A stretch of 8,155 nucleotides of DNA from IMG/VR virus record IMGVR_UViG_2534681649_000004; one strand, given 5' to 3'. Below, one piece after another: positions 17-5,796 of the stretch. The notes below the pieces were generated by a model. That model was not told the origin of the DNA. It did not search any database and worked only from the letters and a program-made list of their open reading frames with translations. Source of the DNA: a virus. Its lineage: Duplodnaviria; Heunggongvirae; Uroviricota; Caudoviricetes. Each line of letters begins with the position of its first letter. Position 1 is the stretch's first letter. Position numbers and translations under genes: made by a program.

Positions 17-43
17 TGAGGTGTACTGGCAATAGCGGACACT
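17..43. repeat. IS600-like terminal inverted repeat (orfB-proximal end)
   Basis: TGAGGTGTACTGGCAATAGCGGACACT; pairs with the reverse complement of 1254..1280 (TGAGGTAGCCTGAGTTTAACGGACACT), sharing the TGAGGT terminus and the CGGACACT inner block. Confidence 0.55.
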
Positions 44-59
44 ACCATTTGTTCTTTTT

Positions 60-878
60 TTAAGCAGCCATCTGATGATATTTTTCCCTGAAGGCTGCCG
101 GGGAGATATTCCCCAGACGAGAGTGACGACGCTGACGATTGTAGAAAATCTCAATGTATTCCCGTATTACTGAGATGGCTTCATCCCGGTTATTAAAACG
201 ATAGTGGCTCAGGCTCTCATTTTTCAGCGTTCCCCAGAAGCTTTCCATCGGAGCGTTGTCGTAACAGTGACCTTTACGCGACATTGATGTTTTCAGACCA
301 GACTGCTCCTGTATGACCCGGTAATCGTATGCGCAGTACTGTGAACCTCGATCAGAGTGGTGGATTAGCCCGGCAGGTGGGCGCTGGCTCCTGAGCGCCA
401 TAAACAGGGCTTTACCTGTCAGCTCTTTTGTCATGCGCTCTCCCATGGCGTAGCCGACAATTTCGCACGTATAAACATCTTTGATGCCAGCGAGGTACAA
501 CCATCCCTCCTGTGTGGCAACATACGTCAGGTCCGCCACCCAGACCTGATTTGGTGCTGTAGGAGCGAACGTCTGGTTCAGCAGATTTGGCGCAACTGGC
601 AGATTGTGGTTCGGGTTCGTAGTCGCTCTGAACTTGCGTTTCTGCTTACAGCGTAGCCTTAGCTCCTTACGAAGACGTGCCAGTCGGTCACGACCAACGA
701 TGATGCCATTCTCTGCCAGCTCCGTCTGGAGCCGCCGGGTTCCATATGTTTCGCGAGTGCGGATATGTGCCACCTTAATCTCCAGTTTTAGCCGCTCATC
801 ACTTTGTTTTCTGTCTGAGGGTTCATGCTGTACCCAGTTGTAATAACCGCTCCTGGATACACCAAATACCTGACACAT
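60..878 (-). CDS. IS3-family transposase OrfB (DDE integrase catalytic domain), IS600-like; expressed in vivo as an OrfAB fusion by -1 frameshifting
   Basis: 272-aa ORF with DDE-type motifs (VWVADLTYV, HHSDRGSQY, CYDNAPMESFWGTLKNE). Sits in the -1 frame relative to orfA (codon phase checked by hand). Stop codon TAA at 60..62. Confidence 0.9.
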   Translation of the reverse strand: MCQVFGVSRSGYYNWVQHEPSDRKQSDERLKLEIKVAHIRTRETYGTRRLQTELAENGIIVGRDRLARLRKELRLRCKQKRKFRATTNPNHNLPVAPNLLNQTFAPTAPNQVWVADLTYVATQEGWLYLAGIKDVYTCEIVGYAMGERMTKELTGKALFMALRSQRPPAGLIHHSDRGSQYCAYDYRVIQEQSGLKTSMSRKGHCYDNAPMESFWGTLKNESLSHYRFNNRDEAISVIREYIEIFYNRQRRHSRLGNISPAAFREKYHQMAA

Positions 879-913
879 CGCTTCAATGGGAAATTGTTGT
901 CGCCATTGTTCGA

Positions 914-1216
914 TTAACGCGTATTTTTCAGCGACTCCTGTGCAAAATACGCTGTTGCTTTTTTTAATATATCTCGCTCAAGGCGAGCTTCATTTAACGC
1001 CTTACGCAGTTGCAGAATTTCAGATTCCAGTTCAGCCACCGTGCGGGAACCAGGAGTACCGAGCCCTTTTCTGGCGGCGGTAACCCATTGTCCTAAAGTG
1101 CCTTCAGGAAGGGATAATCGGGAAGCGCCTTCACTGATCGAAAGTTGATTTTCAAGAACCGTTCTGACAGTTTCGGCTTTGAACTCTTTAGAGTAACGTT
1201 GGTTTTTTCTGCTCAT
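914..1216 (-). CDS. IS3-family transposase OrfA (helix-turn-helix DNA-binding and leucine-zipper part), IS600-like
   Basis: 100-aa ORF MSRKNQRYSKEFKAETVRTVLENQLSISEGASRLSLPEGTLGQW..., typical IS3 OrfA. AGGAG Shine-Dalgarno about 7 nt upstream of the ATG at 1216. The ORF overlaps the slippery run. Confidence 0.9.
   Translation of the reverse strand: MSRKNQRYSKEFKAETVRTVLENQLSISEGASRLSLPEGTLGQWVTAARKGLGTPGSRTVAELESEILQLRKALNEARLERDILKKATAYFAQESLKNTR
959..965 (-). promoter_or_regulatory. Programmed -1 ribosomal frameshift slippery heptamer (A_AAA_AAA then G) between orfA and orfB
   Basis: T7 run on the plus strand at 959..965 is A7 on the coding strand, read TTA AAA AAA GCA (L K K A) in the orfA frame. 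A -1 slip enters the orfB frame (phase confirmed). Analogous to the A AAA AAG motif of IS911/IS3. Confidence 0.55.
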
Positions 1217-1253
1217 TATTAGCTCCTTCTGATGCCATTCTATTTCAGGAAGG

Positions 1254-1280
1254 AGTGTCCGTTAAACTCAGGCTACCTCA
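1254..1280. repeat. IS600-like terminal inverted repeat (orfA-proximal end)
   Basis: Reverse complement TGAGGTAGCCTGAGTTTAACGGACACT matches 17..43 at 19/27 positions; element ends in ...CA as expected for the IS3 family. Confidence 0.55.
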
Positions 1281-1456
1281 GTGTGCCAGAGGGGCGTATG
1301 TATCTGTCCAGAATCAGTGAGGCCATCAGTTTGTCTGCTGGTGAAGTGGCCCACCGGTTAATCGTCCCTTCATCGGATATTGACCTGGGGGAGACCGAGC
1401 TTCCGGTGCTCGGCGAGATCACCTGGCAGGCTTATGACCCGGCAAGGAGTAAATAA
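1281..1456 (+). pseudogene. 3' fragment of a phage baseplate J-like (Mu gp47/P2 gpJ-like) gene truncated by the IS600-like insertion
   Basis: Frame open from the IS boundary with no start codon (VPEGRMYLSRISEAISLSAGEVAHRLIVPSSDIDLGETELPVLGEITWQAYDPARSK*). Its stop overlaps the next gene's ATG (TAATG at 1454..1458), implying translational coupling in a baseplate operon. Identity is inferred from synteny only. Confidence 0.45.
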
Positions 1457-2046
1457 TGGATTCGTTACAGGATGATTATACAAAGCTGCTGTACGGACTG
1501 ATGCAGCCGGGGCCTGCATGGTCAGATACCGACGGTGTACTTGACGGTCTGGCACCATCGCTTGTGCGTGTTCACCAGCGGGCTGATGAACTGGTGATTG
1601 AAATCGATCCCGGTCAGTCCACAGAGCTGATTGAACGTTATGAAGAATTGTATGGTTTACCTGATTCCTGTTCCCCTGTCGGAACCCAGACATTACGCCA
1701 GCGTCAGCAACGTCTTGAAGCAAAAGCCAATGTGGCTGGTGGCATAAATGAGCAGTTCTTCCTGGATCAGCTTGAGGCGCTGGGATATACCGGCGTAACG
1801 ATCGAACAGTTCCAGCACCTGGATGCAAGCCCCGATCCGGAATGGGGAGATCGCTGGCGTTATTTCTGGCGTGTGACGTTGCCGGTGGATGCCGGTGCTC
1901 AGTGGCAGACATGCACGGACGCCTGCAACACACCGATCCGGACGTGGGGGGATACGGTTGCGGAGTGCGTGATTAATAAATTATGTCCGTCACACACCGT
2001 CGTTTTATTTTCCTATCCAGATGAGGATGAAGATGCACAGGATTGA
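1456..2046 (+). CDS. Phage tail/baseplate protein, YmfQ/Mu gp48-like (DUF2313-type)
   Basis: 196-aa ORF. Position between a baseplate J-like gene and the tail fibre gene matches Mu (47-48-S-U) and e14 (ymfP-ymfQ-stf-tfa) order. Family assignment from memory; start overlaps the upstream stop. Confidence 0.75.
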   Translation: MDSLQDDYTKLLYGLMQPGPAWSDTDGVLDGLAPSLVRVHQRADELVIEIDPGQSTELIERYEELYGLPDSCSPVGTQTLRQRQQRLEAKANVAGGINEQFFLDQLEALGYTGVTIEQFQHLDASPDPEWGDRWRYFWRVTLPVDAGAQWQTCTDACNTPIRTWGDTVAECVINKLCPSHTVVLFSYPDEDEDAQD

Positions 2047-3240
2047 TACGCTGACTGCGGTAAAAGATAAGTTTGGTCCGGGTAAGAACGGATTTACTGA
2101 CGGAAATCTTCGCACAGGACGTCTTGCTACCTGGCTGAACAGTGCCATGTGGAATGCCATTCAGGAGGAAATCTGTGGTGTCATTGAGAAGGCCGGGATA
2201 GAACTGAATAAAGAAGAACACGACCAGCTATATAAGGCTATATTATTGCTGGTGGGCGGTGCAATTAACGAAGAGGCATTGCTGATAAAAAATAACCTTT
2301 CGGATGTGGAAGACAGGGATGAGGCTGTTGAAAACCTCGGATTAAAACCCACGGTGGATAAGGCAAAAAATGCCGTTCAGCGTGATGGCGACACCATGAC
2401 CGGAGAGCTGAAAATCCGTGGTGTTAATGCGCTGAGGATTTTCAACGAAGCTTTTGGCCTGATTTTTCGTCGTTCGGAAGAGTGCCTGCACCTTATTCCC
2501 ACCAGTGAAGGTCAGGGGGAAAATGGCGATATTGGTCCCCTGCGCCCGTTCACCATTAATCTGCGGACGGGTGAAATATCCATGTCGCATAAAGTGTCTG
2601 TTGGCGGTGGTTCGCAGGTCAATGGTGCGCTGGGTATCGGCGTTCAGAACGCCCTGGGGGGAATTCAATTGCTTTCGGGGATAACGATACAGGTATAAAA
2701 CAAAACGGCGACGGCATTCTGGATGTTTATGCGAATGGACAGCATGTATTTCGTTTCCAGAATGGTGTGGCGATAGCGTTAAAAAATATTCAGGCCGGAA
2801 ATGCTAAAAAATTCACGTTATCCAGCGCCAACAACTCCACGAAAAATGCAGCGTTTTATTTGTGGGGTAATCCATCCAGGCCTGTTGTTGCAGAGCTTGG
2901 TGATGATTCCGGCTGGCATTTCTACAGCCAGAGAAATACCGATGGTAGTATCACATTCGCTGTAAACGGACAGGTAATTCCGTTAAATTACGGAAACTTC
3001 GATGCCCGCTATAAACATCGAACTGAGGGGGTACAGGATGTGCGGTATGGTTATGAAATGTATTACAACCCTGGCAGCAACACCGTTTCATGGACGTTTC
3101 GCTCACCTTCGGGACACGGGTTGTCAGGGATATCGATATCGGATACCGGCCGTAACTCAGCGGATAACGTCAACGGTGTGTATTACCGACCGCTGCAAAA
3201 ACTGATTAATGGCATCTGGTATAACGTAGCGAGTATTTAA
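2033..3240 (+). pseudogene. Tail fibre gene (Mu S / e14 Stf type) split by a 1-nt frame offset in a G6 tract; N-terminal segment 2033..2698, C-terminal segment from about 2662 to 3240
   Basis: N-terminal frame (MHRIDTLTAVKDKF...VQNALGG, likely start ATG 2033 after GAGGA at 2023..2027; the track's 2021 start is in the same frame) stops at 2696..2698. The other frame is open from 2593 and encodes NSIAFGDNDTGIKQNGDGILDVYANGQHVFRFQNGVAIALKNIQAGN...RPLQKLINGIWYNVASI, the conserved C-terminal block of lambda Stf/T4 gp37-type fibres. The two join seamlessly at the G run 2656..2661 if one more nucleotide is present. Confidence 0.75.
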
Positions 3241-3242
3241 CA

Positions 3243-3788
3243 ATGTTGCATTTAAAAAATATTACGGCAGGTAATCCGAAAACCGCGGAACAATATCAGC
3301 TGACAAAACAGTATGATGTCACCTGGCTTTTTTCGGAAGACGGCAAAAACTGGTATGAAGAACAGAAGAACTTTGCCAGTGACACCATAAAAATGGTTTA
3401 CACCGGAGACGGGCGCGTGGTGTGGGTCGGTAAGGATGTGACAGGCATTGAACCCCGTAACGCCAGTGTTATTGAAGTTCCTGATATTACCGCCAACCGC
3501 CGCATTACCGCGCCGGGTTACTGGTTTTACCGCAATGATGAATTTGTCTTTGACTACAGACTCAAAGCGGAAGATGAGCGTGATGCCCTTCTGGCTCAGG
3601 TCAGTGCCCGGACAGGGGAATGGGAAGAAGACCTGCTGCTGGGGCTAATCAGCGACGAAGACCGGGAAAAACTGAAAGCGTACCGTATTTACGCGAAATC
3701 GCTGCAGGCGATGGATTTCAGCGCCATCACTGATAAATCCTCATACAACGCCATTGAATGGCCCGTCTCTCCGGAAGGTTCTTCCTGA
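3243..3788 (+). CDS. Tail fibre assembly protein (Tfa / Mu U / P2 G family chaperone)
   Basis: 181-aa ORF starting MLHLKNITAGNPKTAEQYQLTKQYDVTWLFSEDGKNWYEEQKNF, the characteristic Tfa N-terminus. Starts 2 nt after the fibre gene stop. Confidence 0.85.
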   Translation: MLHLKNITAGNPKTAEQYQLTKQYDVTWLFSEDGKNWYEEQKNFASDTIKMVYTGDGRVVWVGKDVTGIEPRNASVIEVPDITANRRITAPGYWFYRNDEFVFDYRLKAEDERDALLAQVSARTGEWEEDLLLGLISDEDREKLKAYRIYAKSLQAMDFSAITDKSSYNAIEWPVSPEGSS

Positions 3789-3811: not shown

Positions 3812-5080
3812 ATGTCTGTAGTGATATCAGGTGCGCTGACTGATGGCGCAGGCATCCCCATGTCCGGATGCCAGATTATTCTGAAATCCCGTGTAAACAC
3901 CTCAGAAGTGGTGATGCGTACCAGGGCTGATGTAGTGACCGGAAATAACGGTGAATATTCGTTTGAGGCACAGGTCGGAAAATATTGCGTGTATCTGAAA
4001 CGGGACTGGCGCGACGAGTACTGTGTTGGCGACATTGCTGTATACGACGACTCAAAGCCCGGCACGCTGAATGACTTTCTGACTGCCCCCGATGAAGGCG
4101 ACCTGAAGCCGGATGTCGTCAAACGCTTTGAGGAAATGGTGGCGCAGGCGCAGCAGAGCGCCGGGGCCGCAGCCGGAAACGCACAGCAGACGGCGCAGGA
4201 TGTGGCGGCAGCCGCAGGTTATGCCCGCGCAGCAGAACAGGCCAAAAATGACATTGATGCTGCGCTGACCGGCACTCTGAAAATGGCTAACCATCTGTCA
4301 GAAATCGCAGCAGCAGGCGAAAAGGCACAACAGAAGTCCCGGGATAATCTGGGGCTGAAAAGTGCGGCCACGATGGAAGCACAGAGCGACATTTACGACC
4401 GGACAAAAGGCCGTCTGGCGATACCCGGCGCATTCGGCTTTGGGTGTGCTTTTCTGCCTGAAGATGTTATCCGTTTTGACACTAAGAGTGATTTCCTGGC
4501 CTGGGTAAGGAATGCGCTGCCAGGTGAATATTCCGTTGCTGGCCCCTACGACATCATCATACCCGACACACGGTTTGAAGGGGTGCTCAGCATCCGGTGG
4601 ACTGATGCACGCCCTGAGACAACAGAACCGCGGTACAGAGCCAAATCCCTTACTTTTTACGGCATTAACGGCCCCATTTATCACACCCGCTACTGCTACT
4701 GGCCCATATCCAGACTGACTGGCTGGGTGAAAATAAATATAACCACAGAAGATATTATTTACAGAATCGTGGCGAGCTCTGTCCGCAACAGATGGGGAGA
4801 CCCTGACATTGGCGGGCTGATTATTGCTGCGTACCAGGGAGAAGCTGACGGTGATAAAGTCATCAGACTTGTCAGGGGGCAGTCATACAGAGGCTCACGA
4901 CTGGGACCGGTGGGGATTTCAGTGCCCAGTACTCCCACCGGAACGTATATAGCATCCCCACAATTTTTCATTACGGGATGTTCAGAGCATTCATTACCGG
5001 GGTCATATTGCGCCCTGTCCGGGGGGCCGGATGCACATGTCTCTGGCGCAATGCCCGGGCTTTTTATTCGCACATCGTGA
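3812..5080 (+). CDS. Second tail fibre protein: lambdoid side-tail-fibre-type N-terminal domain, Ala/Gln-rich linker, and a C-terminal domain I cannot place
   Basis: 422-aa ORF. N-terminus MSVVISGALTDGAGIPMSGCQIILKSRVNTSEVVMRT...VYDDSKPGTLNDFL resembles the prophage tail fibre N-terminal domain of StfR/lambda Stf (from memory), followed by AQAQQSAGAAAGNAQQTAQDVAAAAGYARAAEQAK and an NLGLK motif. The C-terminal roughly 230 aa are Cys- and aromatic-rich with no family I recognise. Confidence 0.75.
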   Translation: MSVVISGALTDGAGIPMSGCQIILKSRVNTSEVVMRTRADVVTGNNGEYSFEAQVGKYCVYLKRDWRDEYCVGDIAVYDDSKPGTLNDFLTAPDEGDLKPDVVKRFEEMVAQAQQSAGAAAGNAQQTAQDVAAAAGYARAAEQAKNDIDAALTGTLKMANHLSEIAAAGEKAQQKSRDNLGLKSAATMEAQSDIYDRTKGRLAIPGAFGFGCAFLPEDVIRFDTKSDFLAWVRNALPGEYSVAGPYDIIIPDTRFEGVLSIRWTDARPETTEPRYRAKSLTFYGINGPIYHTRYCYWPISRLTGWVKINITTEDIIYRIVASSVRNRWGDPDIGGLIIAAYQGEADGDKVIRLVRGQSYRGSRLGPVGISVPSTPTGTYIASPQFFITGCSEHSLPGSYCALSGGPDAHVSGAMPGLFIRTS

Positions 5081-5083
5081 GGA

Positions 5084-5653
5084 ATGCACCGTGGAAATTA
5101 AAAAATCATTAATCCCCGTTATACCGAAAGTGGCGCAGTAGACTGTGACGTTTTTTTTGACGACAGGGACCAGGCAGTCCCCTACACAGCCACCGCTGAT
5201 GATGTCGCTCCGACGGGTCAGCAAATCTGGCAGGAACTGCAAAGCGGCAAATGGGGTGAGATAGCCCCATTCACTGTGACACCAGAAATGCTGGAAGCGG
5301 CCAGAGAGGCCAGACGTCAGGAAATTGAAGCATGGCGCGCAGAACAGGAGGCGAAGCCGTTCACGTTTGAATGGAACGGTCGTATCTGGAATGCTGGTCC
5401 CGACTCACTGGGCCGCCTGTCCCCGGTAGTCATGCTGGCAAAATCTGTCACAGCACAAACACATATGGCGTGGAGCGATGCCGATAATCAGCAGGTGAAA
5501 CTGTCGATGCCGGAACTGGAAGAACTGGCGGCAGCAATGGTGCAGGCGCAGGTCGATCGCAACGATGAGATTTATCGCCGTCAGCGTGAAATGAAAGAGG
5601 AGCTGAGCGGTCTGGATGATTTGGCTTCAATTCGGGCGTTTGACGTTGAGTAA
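5084..5653 (+). pseudogene. Tail fibre assembly/chaperone-like gene (DUF4376-like C-terminus) with an in-frame TAA at codon 6; alternatively a shorter CDS from GTG 5276
   Basis: ATG 5084 follows GAGG (5079..5082) overlapping the upstream stop, reads MHRGN then TAA (5099..5101). The same frame then runs open for 184 codons to 5653 with no ATG/GTG/TTG before GTG 5276. C-terminal sequence (FEWNGRIWNAGPDSLGRLSPVVMLAKSV...KLSMPELEELAAAMVQAQVDRNDEIYRRQ) resembles phage tail-fibre chaperone domains, from memory. Confidence 0.5.
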
Positions 5654-5769
5654 TGAATAAGCCGCAACTGGCGGAATCACAGAAGACCGCTTTGCTTACC
5701 GAAGCGGAGTCTGTCATCCGGCCGCGGGGGCGTGCTGTCAGGCTGAACAGGGAAACGGATGAATCCGGG

Positions 5770-5796
5770 GAGGCCCGGGGGCGGGCCTCTGTTTTT
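5770..5796 (+). terminator. Rho-independent terminator between the convergent tail-fibre operon and ipaH
   Basis: GAGGCCCG (5770..5777), loop GGGG, CGGGCCTC (5782..5789), then TGTTTTT. An 8-bp GC-rich perfect stem with a T tract on the plus strand; the reverse strand has the same hairpin preceded by A's, so it may act partly in both directions. Confidence 0.55.

Follow-up and report, generated by a model that had tools for sequence, protein, structure and literature searches.

Does a 26-base stretch in the tail-fibre gene of a decayed prophage mark the remains of a DNA-inversion switch, or does it simply encode a conserved piece of the fibre protein? A sequence-only reading of the window (the whole stretch of DNA analysed here, 8155 bases long) had singled out positions 2325-2350 as a relic crossover core of the gix/hix type, and had taken it as a trace of an ancestral invertible host-range switch that was lost. 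Crossover sites of the Din family are 26 bp long and consist of two inverted 12-bp half-sites (consensus TTCTCNNAAACC / TTATCNAAAACC). Wild-type invertases need two sites in cis together with a Fis-bound enhancer, and the 5' part of the serine invertase gene (gin, cin, pin or hin) carries this Fis-dependent enhancer.

A phiP27-like tail module

The window is a decayed prophage tail module within an ipaH island, which we infer from its IS600, IS1 and ipaH content to be an island of the Shigella/EIEC type. The nearest described phage is phiP27, and the window is a phiP27-like prophage remnant with the following features:

~17-1280, minus strand: IS600
1281-1456: final 176 bases of a baseplate J/gp47 gene
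1456-2046, plus strand: YmfQ / Mu gp48-like baseplate gene (PF10076), directly upstream of fibre 1, as in e14 and Mu
2033-3240, plus strand: tail-fibre gene 1 (fibre 1), of the Mu S / e14 StfP / phiP27 L54 type, a pseudogene
2291-2344, plus strand: coding sequence of the protein module NNLSDVEDRDEAVENLGL (NLSD, 9 residues, A-x-x-N-L-G-L)
2325-2350, plus strand: flagged 26-mer, CTGTTGAAAACC - TC - GGATTAAAACCC, encoding A-V-E-N-L-G-L-K-P
2351-2420, plus strand: beginning of the shared downstream (variable) module, TVDKAKNAVQRDGDTMTGEL, with homology to the beginnings of both Mu Sv and the P2 H C-terminal region
3243-3788, plus strand: tail-fibre assembly gene (Caudo_TAP; PF02413 at 1.3e-25)
3812-5080, plus strand: tail-fibre gene 2 (fibre 2), with a lambda-Stf-type N-terminal domain (PF08400), in direct orientation
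ending at 5653: DUF4376 gene, frameshifted
5833-7476, minus strand: ipaH gene, intact
7826-7851, plus strand: 26-mer GTACCTTGAACCTTGGTTTTAACATT, within the 3' end of a SAM-methyltransferase gene
from 7861: IS1 end

The reading frame of fibre 1 is broken by a 1-bp deletion at about 2656, relative to locus L001, where positions 6753-7961 hold an intact 402-residue homologue; the break leaves open reading frames at 2021-2698 and 2767-3240. The chromosome of an EIEC-like E. coli has a matching locus, with 99.4% identity, in which fibre 1 is intact (402 residues); NZ_CP065613 is one example of an EIEC strain in which the locus is intact. The product of the assembly gene in the window is 41-47% identical to U and U' of Mu and to G of P2.

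The flagged 26-mer lies at the homologous position of Mu gixL and e14 pixL

Window positions 2325-2350 read CTGTTGAAAACCTCGGATTAAAACCC (2327-2350, GTTGAAAACCTCGGATTAAAACCC), with AAAACCTCGG at 2331-2340, and the fibre frame across them is (E)A-V-E-N-L-G-L-K-P. The sequence-only reading had described a stretch that contains a 10-mer identical to the centre of gix and that encodes E-N-L-G-L-K, and both sequence and frame are as it described them. The gix sequence that it used is correct: Mu gixL as read from NC_000929 is TTATCCAAAACCTCGGTTTACAGGAA, with gixR its exact inverted copy, and the published table of Din-family sites agrees with the gix and pix sequences as read from genomes (PMC3241671). 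The flagged 26-mer is identical to gix at 16 of 26 positions (left half 8/12, core 2/2, right half 6/12), so that the counts for the two arms, made by hand in that reading, also hold. The pixL site of e14, which lies inside stfP in E. coli K-12, is CTCTCGAAAACCTTGGTTTGGGAGAA and is likewise matched at 16 of 26 positions (left half 10/12, right half 5/12). The exact 10-mer AAAACCTCGG is expected 0.02 times per window, a figure for a pattern that was chosen after the fact. Only its location within a homologous gene goes beyond chance, and this is explained by protein homology.

Fibre 1 is of the Mu S type over its whole length. The two proteins have in common the N-terminal domain, the sequence ALLIKNNLS, the NLGL motif, NAVQ.xGDTxxGxL, and a C-terminal NFDxRY...RPxQKxINGxWYNVAS. 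In HMMER alignments, residues 80-130 of fibre 1 pair with residues 147-198 of Mu S (PDB 5yvq), which places ENLGL opposite the gix-encoded QNLGL, and residues 304-401 pair with Mu S 417-503 (PDB 5yvq; whole-sequence E = 3.9e-26). The N-terminal domain, with the pattern MHRIDT...QEE...G..L.K..H.QL directly after the Mu gp48/YmfQ gene, matches Mu S residues 34-97; it is 97-100% identical to phiP27 L54 and its homologues in EIEC prophages. Fibre 1 and e14 StfP are 58% identical over residues 1-65, and in their alignment ALENLGLGE of e14, at the position of the functional pixL site, faces AVENLGLKP of the window. On these alignments the flagged 26-mer is the positional homologue of Mu gixL and e14 pixL.

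The left flank of the motif, NNLSDVEDRDEAVEN, belongs to a module that is present in Mu S as NNLSEIKTAGASAQRTARENLDI. The first such motif of Mu S, ARENLDI, is not Mu's crossover site, yet it reads GAAAATCTGG. The NLSD...NLGL module recurs in fibres with and without invertase sites, for example in ARENLDI of Mu S, in ARxNLGL relatives, and in fibre 2 of the window.

The flagged 26-mer scores below every functional crossover site

We compared the 26-mer with known sites by means of a weight matrix built from 31, and later 35, unique Din half-sites, taken from published tables (PMC3241671, PMC4134206) and from pairs found beside invertases in related loci. Its score is 7.5-8.9 bits, to which the left half contributes 9.4-9.9 and the right half -1.9 to -0.9 (with the 35-half-site matrix, 8.9 bits, from 9.9 and -0.9). 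Functional full sites (n = 29) score 13.0-35 bits, each with one or both halves at or above 11.7-12.7 bits, so the best half of the flagged 26-mer is below the best half of every one of them. By matrix score its left half is intermediate and its right half is no better than about 4% of random 12-mers, so that the two do not form a pair matching the Din-family half-site consensus.

At the inner core positions 6-2 the left half reads AAACC and the right half GGATT, with A instead of the T that all listed GG-core sites have at position 4. The catalytic domain of Gin requires AAA-CC / GG-TTT at positions 6-2, with positions 6-4 strictly specified (PMC3985619). The outer arm of the right half matches at only 1 of 5 positions.

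The flagged 26-mer ranks first in the window, barely ahead of 7826-7851 (7.3-7.4 bits), which has a perfect AACCTTGGTT core palindrome inside the unrelated methyltransferase gene. We considered 7826-7851 as a partner site and rejected it as a chance match: it lies in a methyltransferase gene beside an IS1 end, and its TT core is incompatible with the TC of the flagged 26-mer. Scores of at least 7.5 bits occur at 234 positions in 1.67 Mb of related loci, or at about 0.1 per kb, as estimated from the counts, once real sites and clade copies are set aside.

Most of the likeness is predicted by the encoded peptide

AVENLGLKP can be encoded in 73,728 synonymous ways, and we evaluated all of them, with weights from the codon usage of the phage genes in the window. 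The peptide by itself predicts 12.5 of 26 identities to gix, against 16 observed (P = 0.02), and 14.6 of 26 identities to pix, against 16 observed (P = 0.25). The 10-mer AAAACCTCGG has a probability of 0.012 among these encodings, and the summed matrix score of the actual codons falls in the top 1.7-4.8% (P = 0.017-0.05). This mild excess of site-likeness stems from the rare CTC codon and from TTA, both common to gix-type sites (AAC CTC GGT TTA), and reflects an ancestry at the DNA level in common with real sites. The sequence-only reading had itself cautioned that protein constraint might partly explain the match. That caveat turns out to be the main explanation, since the peptide supplies 12.5 of the 16 gix identities and 14.6 of the 16 pix identities.

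The excess does not single the site out from the DNA around it. In the N-terminal domain, the window and e14 stfP have 54% nucleotide identity, with identical codons at 49% of the places where the amino acids match; inside the site the figures are 62% and 3 of 6 codons. On these figures, the similarity to real sites is not above that of the flanking homologous DNA.

Several other fibres encode NLGL with codons unlike those of a site. As the sequence-only reading had observed, fibre 2 encodes NLGLK (4346-4360) with unrelated codons, AAT CTG GGG CTG AAA; the corresponding 26-mer at 4338-4363, encoding SRDNLGLKS, scores -14.6 bits. The nearest relative by N-terminal domain (L058, 70% identical) has ALVNLGLSG at -14.9 bits, and a group with ARxNLGLG (about 60% identical) uses AAT YTG GGR CTN and scores from -23 to +3 bits. 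The downstream module of fibre 2 (KSAAT...) is also found in another locus (L064), behind a Mu-S-type N-terminus. NLGL is therefore a junction motif at the protein level, which is kept and exchanged regardless of an invertase site.

The site drifts with its flanks, and modules join at several points

The flagged site evolves like its flanks. The 66 phiP27-type copies of the motif score from -0.2 to 9.2 bits and vary by both synonymous and non-synonymous drift (AAC>AAT, GGA>GGG/GGC, AAC>AGC, GAA>GAT). Among 14 clade sequences, third positions vary at 3 of 9 codons inside the site and at 42 of 112 in the flanks (Fisher P = 1). Neither the 66 copies nor this third-position test gave any sign of extra conservation of the site within the phiP27 clade.

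At the level of the family, the flagged motif is a boundary between constant and variable modules: L058, e14 and L169 each share with the window either the N-terminal or the downstream part, and the switch is at the NLGL motif. Within the phiP27 clade the sequences are collinear through ENLGLKPTVDKAKNAVQRDGDTMTG and diverge only after it, and the real constant/variable breakpoints are downstream, at GDTMTG/EL (the slash marks the breakpoint) and beyond, not at NLGL. The claim that 2325-2350 is the junction at which Mu, P1 and e14 fibres switch is thus right as regards homology to gixL and pixL and the family-level boundary, but it does not apply to the breakpoints of the clade.

Other groups join the downstream module at different points. 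L169, with a P2 H/Mu-like constant region, joins at about 2326-2340, inside the 26-mer (PLFIENVGL/KPT); the L174 group joins at about 2352 (AVKAAMD/KAK), and Rac-SA53 at about 2396 (GDxMTG/EL). Because these three breakpoints are at short conserved patches, ordinary recombination fits them better than does a single site-specific point.

No invertase, partner site or inverted cassette accompanies the motif

We surveyed loci in which the N-terminus of the fibre is homologous (33 genomic, 80 viral), and a further 79 loci that share the downstream module. The sequence-only reading had reported no invertase gene and a downstream cassette in direct orientation, and the searches agree with it on both counts. 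TBLASTN searches of the window with PinE and Gin, a relaxed search included, found no invertase gene or fragment (best E = 0.59, noise). Neither an invertase nor a fragment of one was found in the phiP27-clade loci, of which six extend about 10 kb past the site, or in the 79 loci sharing the downstream module. All homology in the window to fibre and assembly genes of Mu, P1, e14 and P2 (S, Sv', U, U', Tfa and G) is on the plus strand, with no inverted cassette. Matrix scans found no partner site with a GA/TC core in the window or the clade loci, and no second site of at least 14.9 bits in the phiP27-clade loci (126.7 kb in total). Across about 100 related loci we found no trace of an invertase, a partner site or an inverted cassette accompanying the motif. 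The flagged element has none of the components needed for inversion.

Intact invertases were found only beside canonical sites, namely in e14-type loci and in L016, L079, L081 and L115, and in each case the partner site is just upstream of the invertase. Seven loci have only a C-terminal fragment of an invertase and a single site of 23-30 bits in the fibre gene; these are genuine locked relics. Genuine relics generally keep sites of 23-32 bits, often beside truncated invertase genes, and there are 11 loci with canonical sites in which an invertase is absent nearby. Among loci with at least 5.5 kb of downstream sequence, traces of an invertase accompany 14 of the 25 sites that score at least 20 bits and none of the 18 that score below 13 bits (P = 6e-5).

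We also searched IMG/VR for more canonical forms of the sequence. The canonical version GCTGTTGAAAACCNNGGTTT had five matches, all in unrelated environmental proteins with AVENLGLG and none in relatives of the fibre. The sequence GGTTTRAAACCNACNGTNGAYAA, which joins the downstream module to a canonical inner core, had three, of which two have Mu-like constant regions; none of the three is canonical as a whole (sums of about -0.5 to 1.7 bits) or has an invertase.

A probable protein junction motif and its alternatives

The flagged 26 bases are probably the coding sequence of a conserved fibre junction motif, without a function in recombination. A module of NLSD, about nine residues and A-x-E-N-L-G-L would link the baseplate-docking N-terminal domain to the shaft and receptor-binding part of the fibre. 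In Mu, e14, P1 and P2-like prophages with invertible segments, the DNA of the motif doubles as a 26-bp Din crossover site, since N-L-G-L is what the palindrome AAACC-NN-GGTTT encodes in this frame; the phiP27-like lineage would have retained the motif as protein only. The likeness to gix and pix would then come from gene homology and amino-acid constraint. Short patches conserved at the DNA level may make NLGL one of several points at which modules are swapped by homologous or illegitimate recombination, and such swapping would make the motif look like a constant/variable junction.

It is also conceivable, though unlikely, that the 26-mer is an ancient relic. A phiP27-like ancestor would have had an invertible segment like that of Mu G, whose invertase, partner site and alternative cassette were deleted; the remaining site would have decayed, mainly in its right half, and a second fibre set in direct orientation now lies downstream of it. 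This reading keeps appreciable weight because invertase systems come and go and because the codons and gix-type sites have a common ancestry at the DNA level. The 26-mer lies where the homologous genes have gixL and pixL, the TC core and the codons CTC and TTA are in common with gix-type sites, and the codon choice is more site-like than 98% of the synonymous alternatives. The downstream module and assembly gene are homologous to Mu Sv (invertible in Mu) and U, one breakpoint (between the window and L169) is inside the 26-mer, gain and loss of invertases, including loss by deletion, is frequent in the family, and P2 H is a precedent for relic sites in phages without an invertase. Nevertheless, documented relics keep sites of 18-32 bits, compared to 7.5-8.9 here, and neither the window nor the roughly 100 related loci retain anything of an invertase, a partner site or an inverted cassette. 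In the nearest N-terminal relatives the codons of the motif do not resemble a site, the left flank belongs to an NNLSD...NL module that is not a crossover site in Mu, and the 26-mer is only as similar to real sites as is the homologous DNA on either side of it. The lost invertible switch proposed by the sequence-only reading is therefore not borne out: there is no excess over the flanks, no extra conservation and no trace in about 100 loci, and demonstrable relics keep canonical sites.

P1 Cin uses quasi-cix sites, and a live role of this kind can be imagined for the 26-mer, with a Din invertase encoded at another locus of the genome (Shigella PinB, PinD or PinF, or e14 Pin) using it rarely to rearrange or capture fibre cassettes. 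Pin-family enzymes do act in trans on other prophages (PMC12529663, PMC4134206), a functional site can contain one very poor half (in hixR, for example, the outer half scores -0.2 bits), the central TC matches gix- and bix-type cores, and the left half keeps the AAA-CC at positions 6-2 that the Gin catalytic domain requires (PMC3985619). We nonetheless regard such use as very improbable. The best half of the 26-mer is weaker than that of any functional site, its right half has A for T at a strictly specified position 4 and an outer arm matching at 1 of 5, neither the window nor the clade loci contain a GA/TC-core partner, and fibre 1 is already a pseudogene; moreover, wild-type invertases need two sites in cis and a Fis-bound enhancer (PMC3798978 and established knowledge). 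Pure coincidence, in which a 10-bp match to gix arose by chance and is unrelated to fibre biology, is scarcely credible. Scores of at least 7.5 bits do turn up at about 0.1 per kb outside real sites and clade copies, and the methyltransferase gene reaches 7.3-7.4 at 7826, but the match is in frame, at exactly the corresponding residues of a homologue of Mu S and e14 StfP, and the alignments refute this idea.

A more far-reaching scenario, which we consider doubtful, is that the phiP27-like lineage swapped a Mu-G-type switch for two co-expressed fibre sets in direct orientation. The 26-mer would then be a decayed site, and perhaps a rare quasi-site for trans-acting Shigella Pin enzymes with TC-core sites. 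If true, this would be an evolutionary shift in host range from one fibre at a time to both at once.

Implications for annotation

Our verdict is that the 26-mer appears to be a homologous junction motif that is non-functional in inversion, an ordinary case of something already known in principle. The phenomenon of junction motifs in fibres has been known in principle since the 1990s (Sandmeier 1994; the description of P2 H). A full-text search of the literature had no match for 'NLGL' together with 'tail fiber'. The window adds one more example to the short conserved motifs that the tail fibres of Mu, P1, P2 and e14 share at module boundaries, and the result matters little on its own merits. 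For annotation, it means that an AAACC..GG core within DNA encoding NLGL does not in itself indicate an invertible switch, whether current or past. Traces of invertases occurred in our survey only at sites of at least 13 bits, and 13 bits on the half-site matrix is a usable cut-off between real or relic sites and homologues of the motif.

Comparison with known systems

The site gixL of Mu, the Gin crossover site at the Sc/Sv junction of the tail-fibre gene S, resembles the flagged 26-mer in lying in a homologous gene and in the same frame, with x-x-N-L-G-L, a central TC and the 10-bp AAAACCTCGG common to both, and the sequence downstream is also homologous (NAVQ.xGDTxxGxL). However, only 16 of 26 positions are identical, and the right arm of the window, GGATTAAAACCC, matches GGTTTACAGGAA at 6 of 12. 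Unlike Mu, the window lacks gin, a gixR partner and an inverted Sv'-U' cassette, and its left flank corresponds to Mu's first module, NNLSE...ARENLDI, which is not a crossover site in Mu.

In the Pin system of e14, pixL is in a fibre gene that has the N-terminal domain of fibre 1 and likewise follows a YmfQ gene, and the motif is equally far from the N-terminus. The left halves match at 10 of 12 positions (CTGTTGAAAACC in the window, CTCTCGAAAACC in e14), whereas the right halves match at 5 of 12 and the core is TC in the window and TT in e14. Furthermore, within 2.5 kb e14 has pixR, pinE and an inverted tfaE-stfE cassette, and the window has none of the three; its pixR is 1.8 kb downstream of pixL and adjoins pinE.

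Like the window, P2, a phage with no invertase, has a gix-like sequence (TTATCGAATATCTCGGTTTACAGGAA) in its fibre gene, H, at the place where homology to Mu Sv begins. The P2 sequence differs in being identical to gixL at 22 of 26 positions and in scoring 18.3 bits (on an earlier matrix), compared to 7.5-8.9 for the window. The P2 H sequence is one base from the functional Phi4 site, which was shown to invert in EC958 (PMC4134206), whereas the 26-mer of the window has no near-identical functional counterpart. To judge by these comparisons, the P2 H sequence is a convincing relic site.

The relic loci of our survey (L018, L028, L072, L083/84, L090/92 and L098) are like the window in fibre family, in the position of the site and in having a switch that is no longer operable. 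They differ in keeping a site of 23-30 bits and a C-terminal invertase fragment, and the window clade has neither. A further comparison is with module-exchange motifs: in the 1994 review by Sandmeier (Mol Microbiol 12:343; cited as a review in PMC4134206), short conserved motifs such as NLGL and GDTMTGxL are said to mark the boundaries at which unrelated fibre segments are joined. The window is one more example of these motifs and differs from them in nothing.

Frameshifts and IS elements in the window

Relative to the 99.4% identical locus in enteroinvasive E. coli (EIEC; L001), the tail-fibre gene 1 of the window is frameshifted by a 1-bp deletion at about 2656, and the DUF4376 gene is frameshifted by a 1-bp deletion at about 5100. 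Since each carries a frameshift, both tail genes are pseudogenes in the window. By contrast, the window has an intact copy of ipaH (5833-7476, minus strand), whereas the L001 copy is frameshifted. Two IS elements and a gene remnant complete the picture:

17-1280, IS600 (IS3 family), whose orfA and orfB are encoded on the minus strand
5578-5796, plus strand, remnant resembling residues about 80-159, the C-terminal part, of the assembly proteins Mu U / P2 G / P1 U'
7861-8155, end of an IS1 element with the InsA N-terminus

IS600 cuts the baseplate J/gp47 gene, of which only 1281-1456 remains, and the IS1 end interrupts the 3' end of the SAM-methyltransferase gene at 7861. Part of the assembly-protein remnant coincides with the end of the DUF4376 ORF, and ipaH comes shortly after the remnant.

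Other site-like 26-mers and the NLGL motif

A second 26-mer in the window, GTACCTTGAACCTTGGTTTTAACATT at 7826-7851, scores as high on the matrix of Din-family invertase half-sites as the site in fibre gene 1 (2325-2350), and it holds a perfect 10-bp palindrome, AACCTTGGTT. It is located in the C-terminal coding region of the methyltransferase gene, and its resemblance to a Din site looks like chance. Three related loci have two site-like 26-mers within one fibre gene, spaced 96 bp apart in direct orientation:

L079, 10290 and 10386
L115, 10278 and 10374
L074, 10290 and 10386

The first member of each pair is canonical (26-31 bits) and the second is TTGTACAAAATATCGGTTTAAAAGAA (13 bits); the pairs reflect a tandem repeat of the protein module DIPxKxxFxQN[IV]GL.

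In the window's fibre 2 (region 4346-4400), NLGL is followed by a module, KSAATMEAQSD..., that recurs in the fibre of the related locus L064 (from 10001), where it comes after a Mu-S-type N-terminal domain (NLGLKSAATADIQTSRDD). The same module is thus joined at NLGL to two unrelated attachment domains, and at NLGL in both fibres a DNA-level invertase site is absent. The exact string GCTGTTGAAAACCTTGGTTT was found in unrelated proteins of five environmental IMG/VR contigs (L122-L126), so fibre genes are not the only place where AVENLGLG and its site-like coding arise. In four of these contigs the context is ...RLTKAVENLGLGFEDARIKTF..., and our guess is that this is a putative tape-measure protein.

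Relatives with a truncated or missing invertase

In one set of related loci (L018, L028, L072, L083/L084, L090/L092 and L098) the surviving invertase is only a C-terminal fragment, starting at residue 95, 109, 113/114, 127 or 155. No partner site was found in these loci, and their fibre-gene site is still canonical (23-30 bits). Because the fragment endpoints differ, the sequences suggest repeated, independent deletions of the invertase, which would have locked the fibre in one orientation. At 11 loci, including L025, L026, L036, L037, L074 and L024, we found neither an invertase nor a fragment downstream (at least 5.5 kb examined per locus, and about 10 kb for the six named). The crossover sites in their fibre genes are canonical (24-32 bits), and among the 11 are e14-like loci from chromosomes of Shigella flexneri and E. 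coli.
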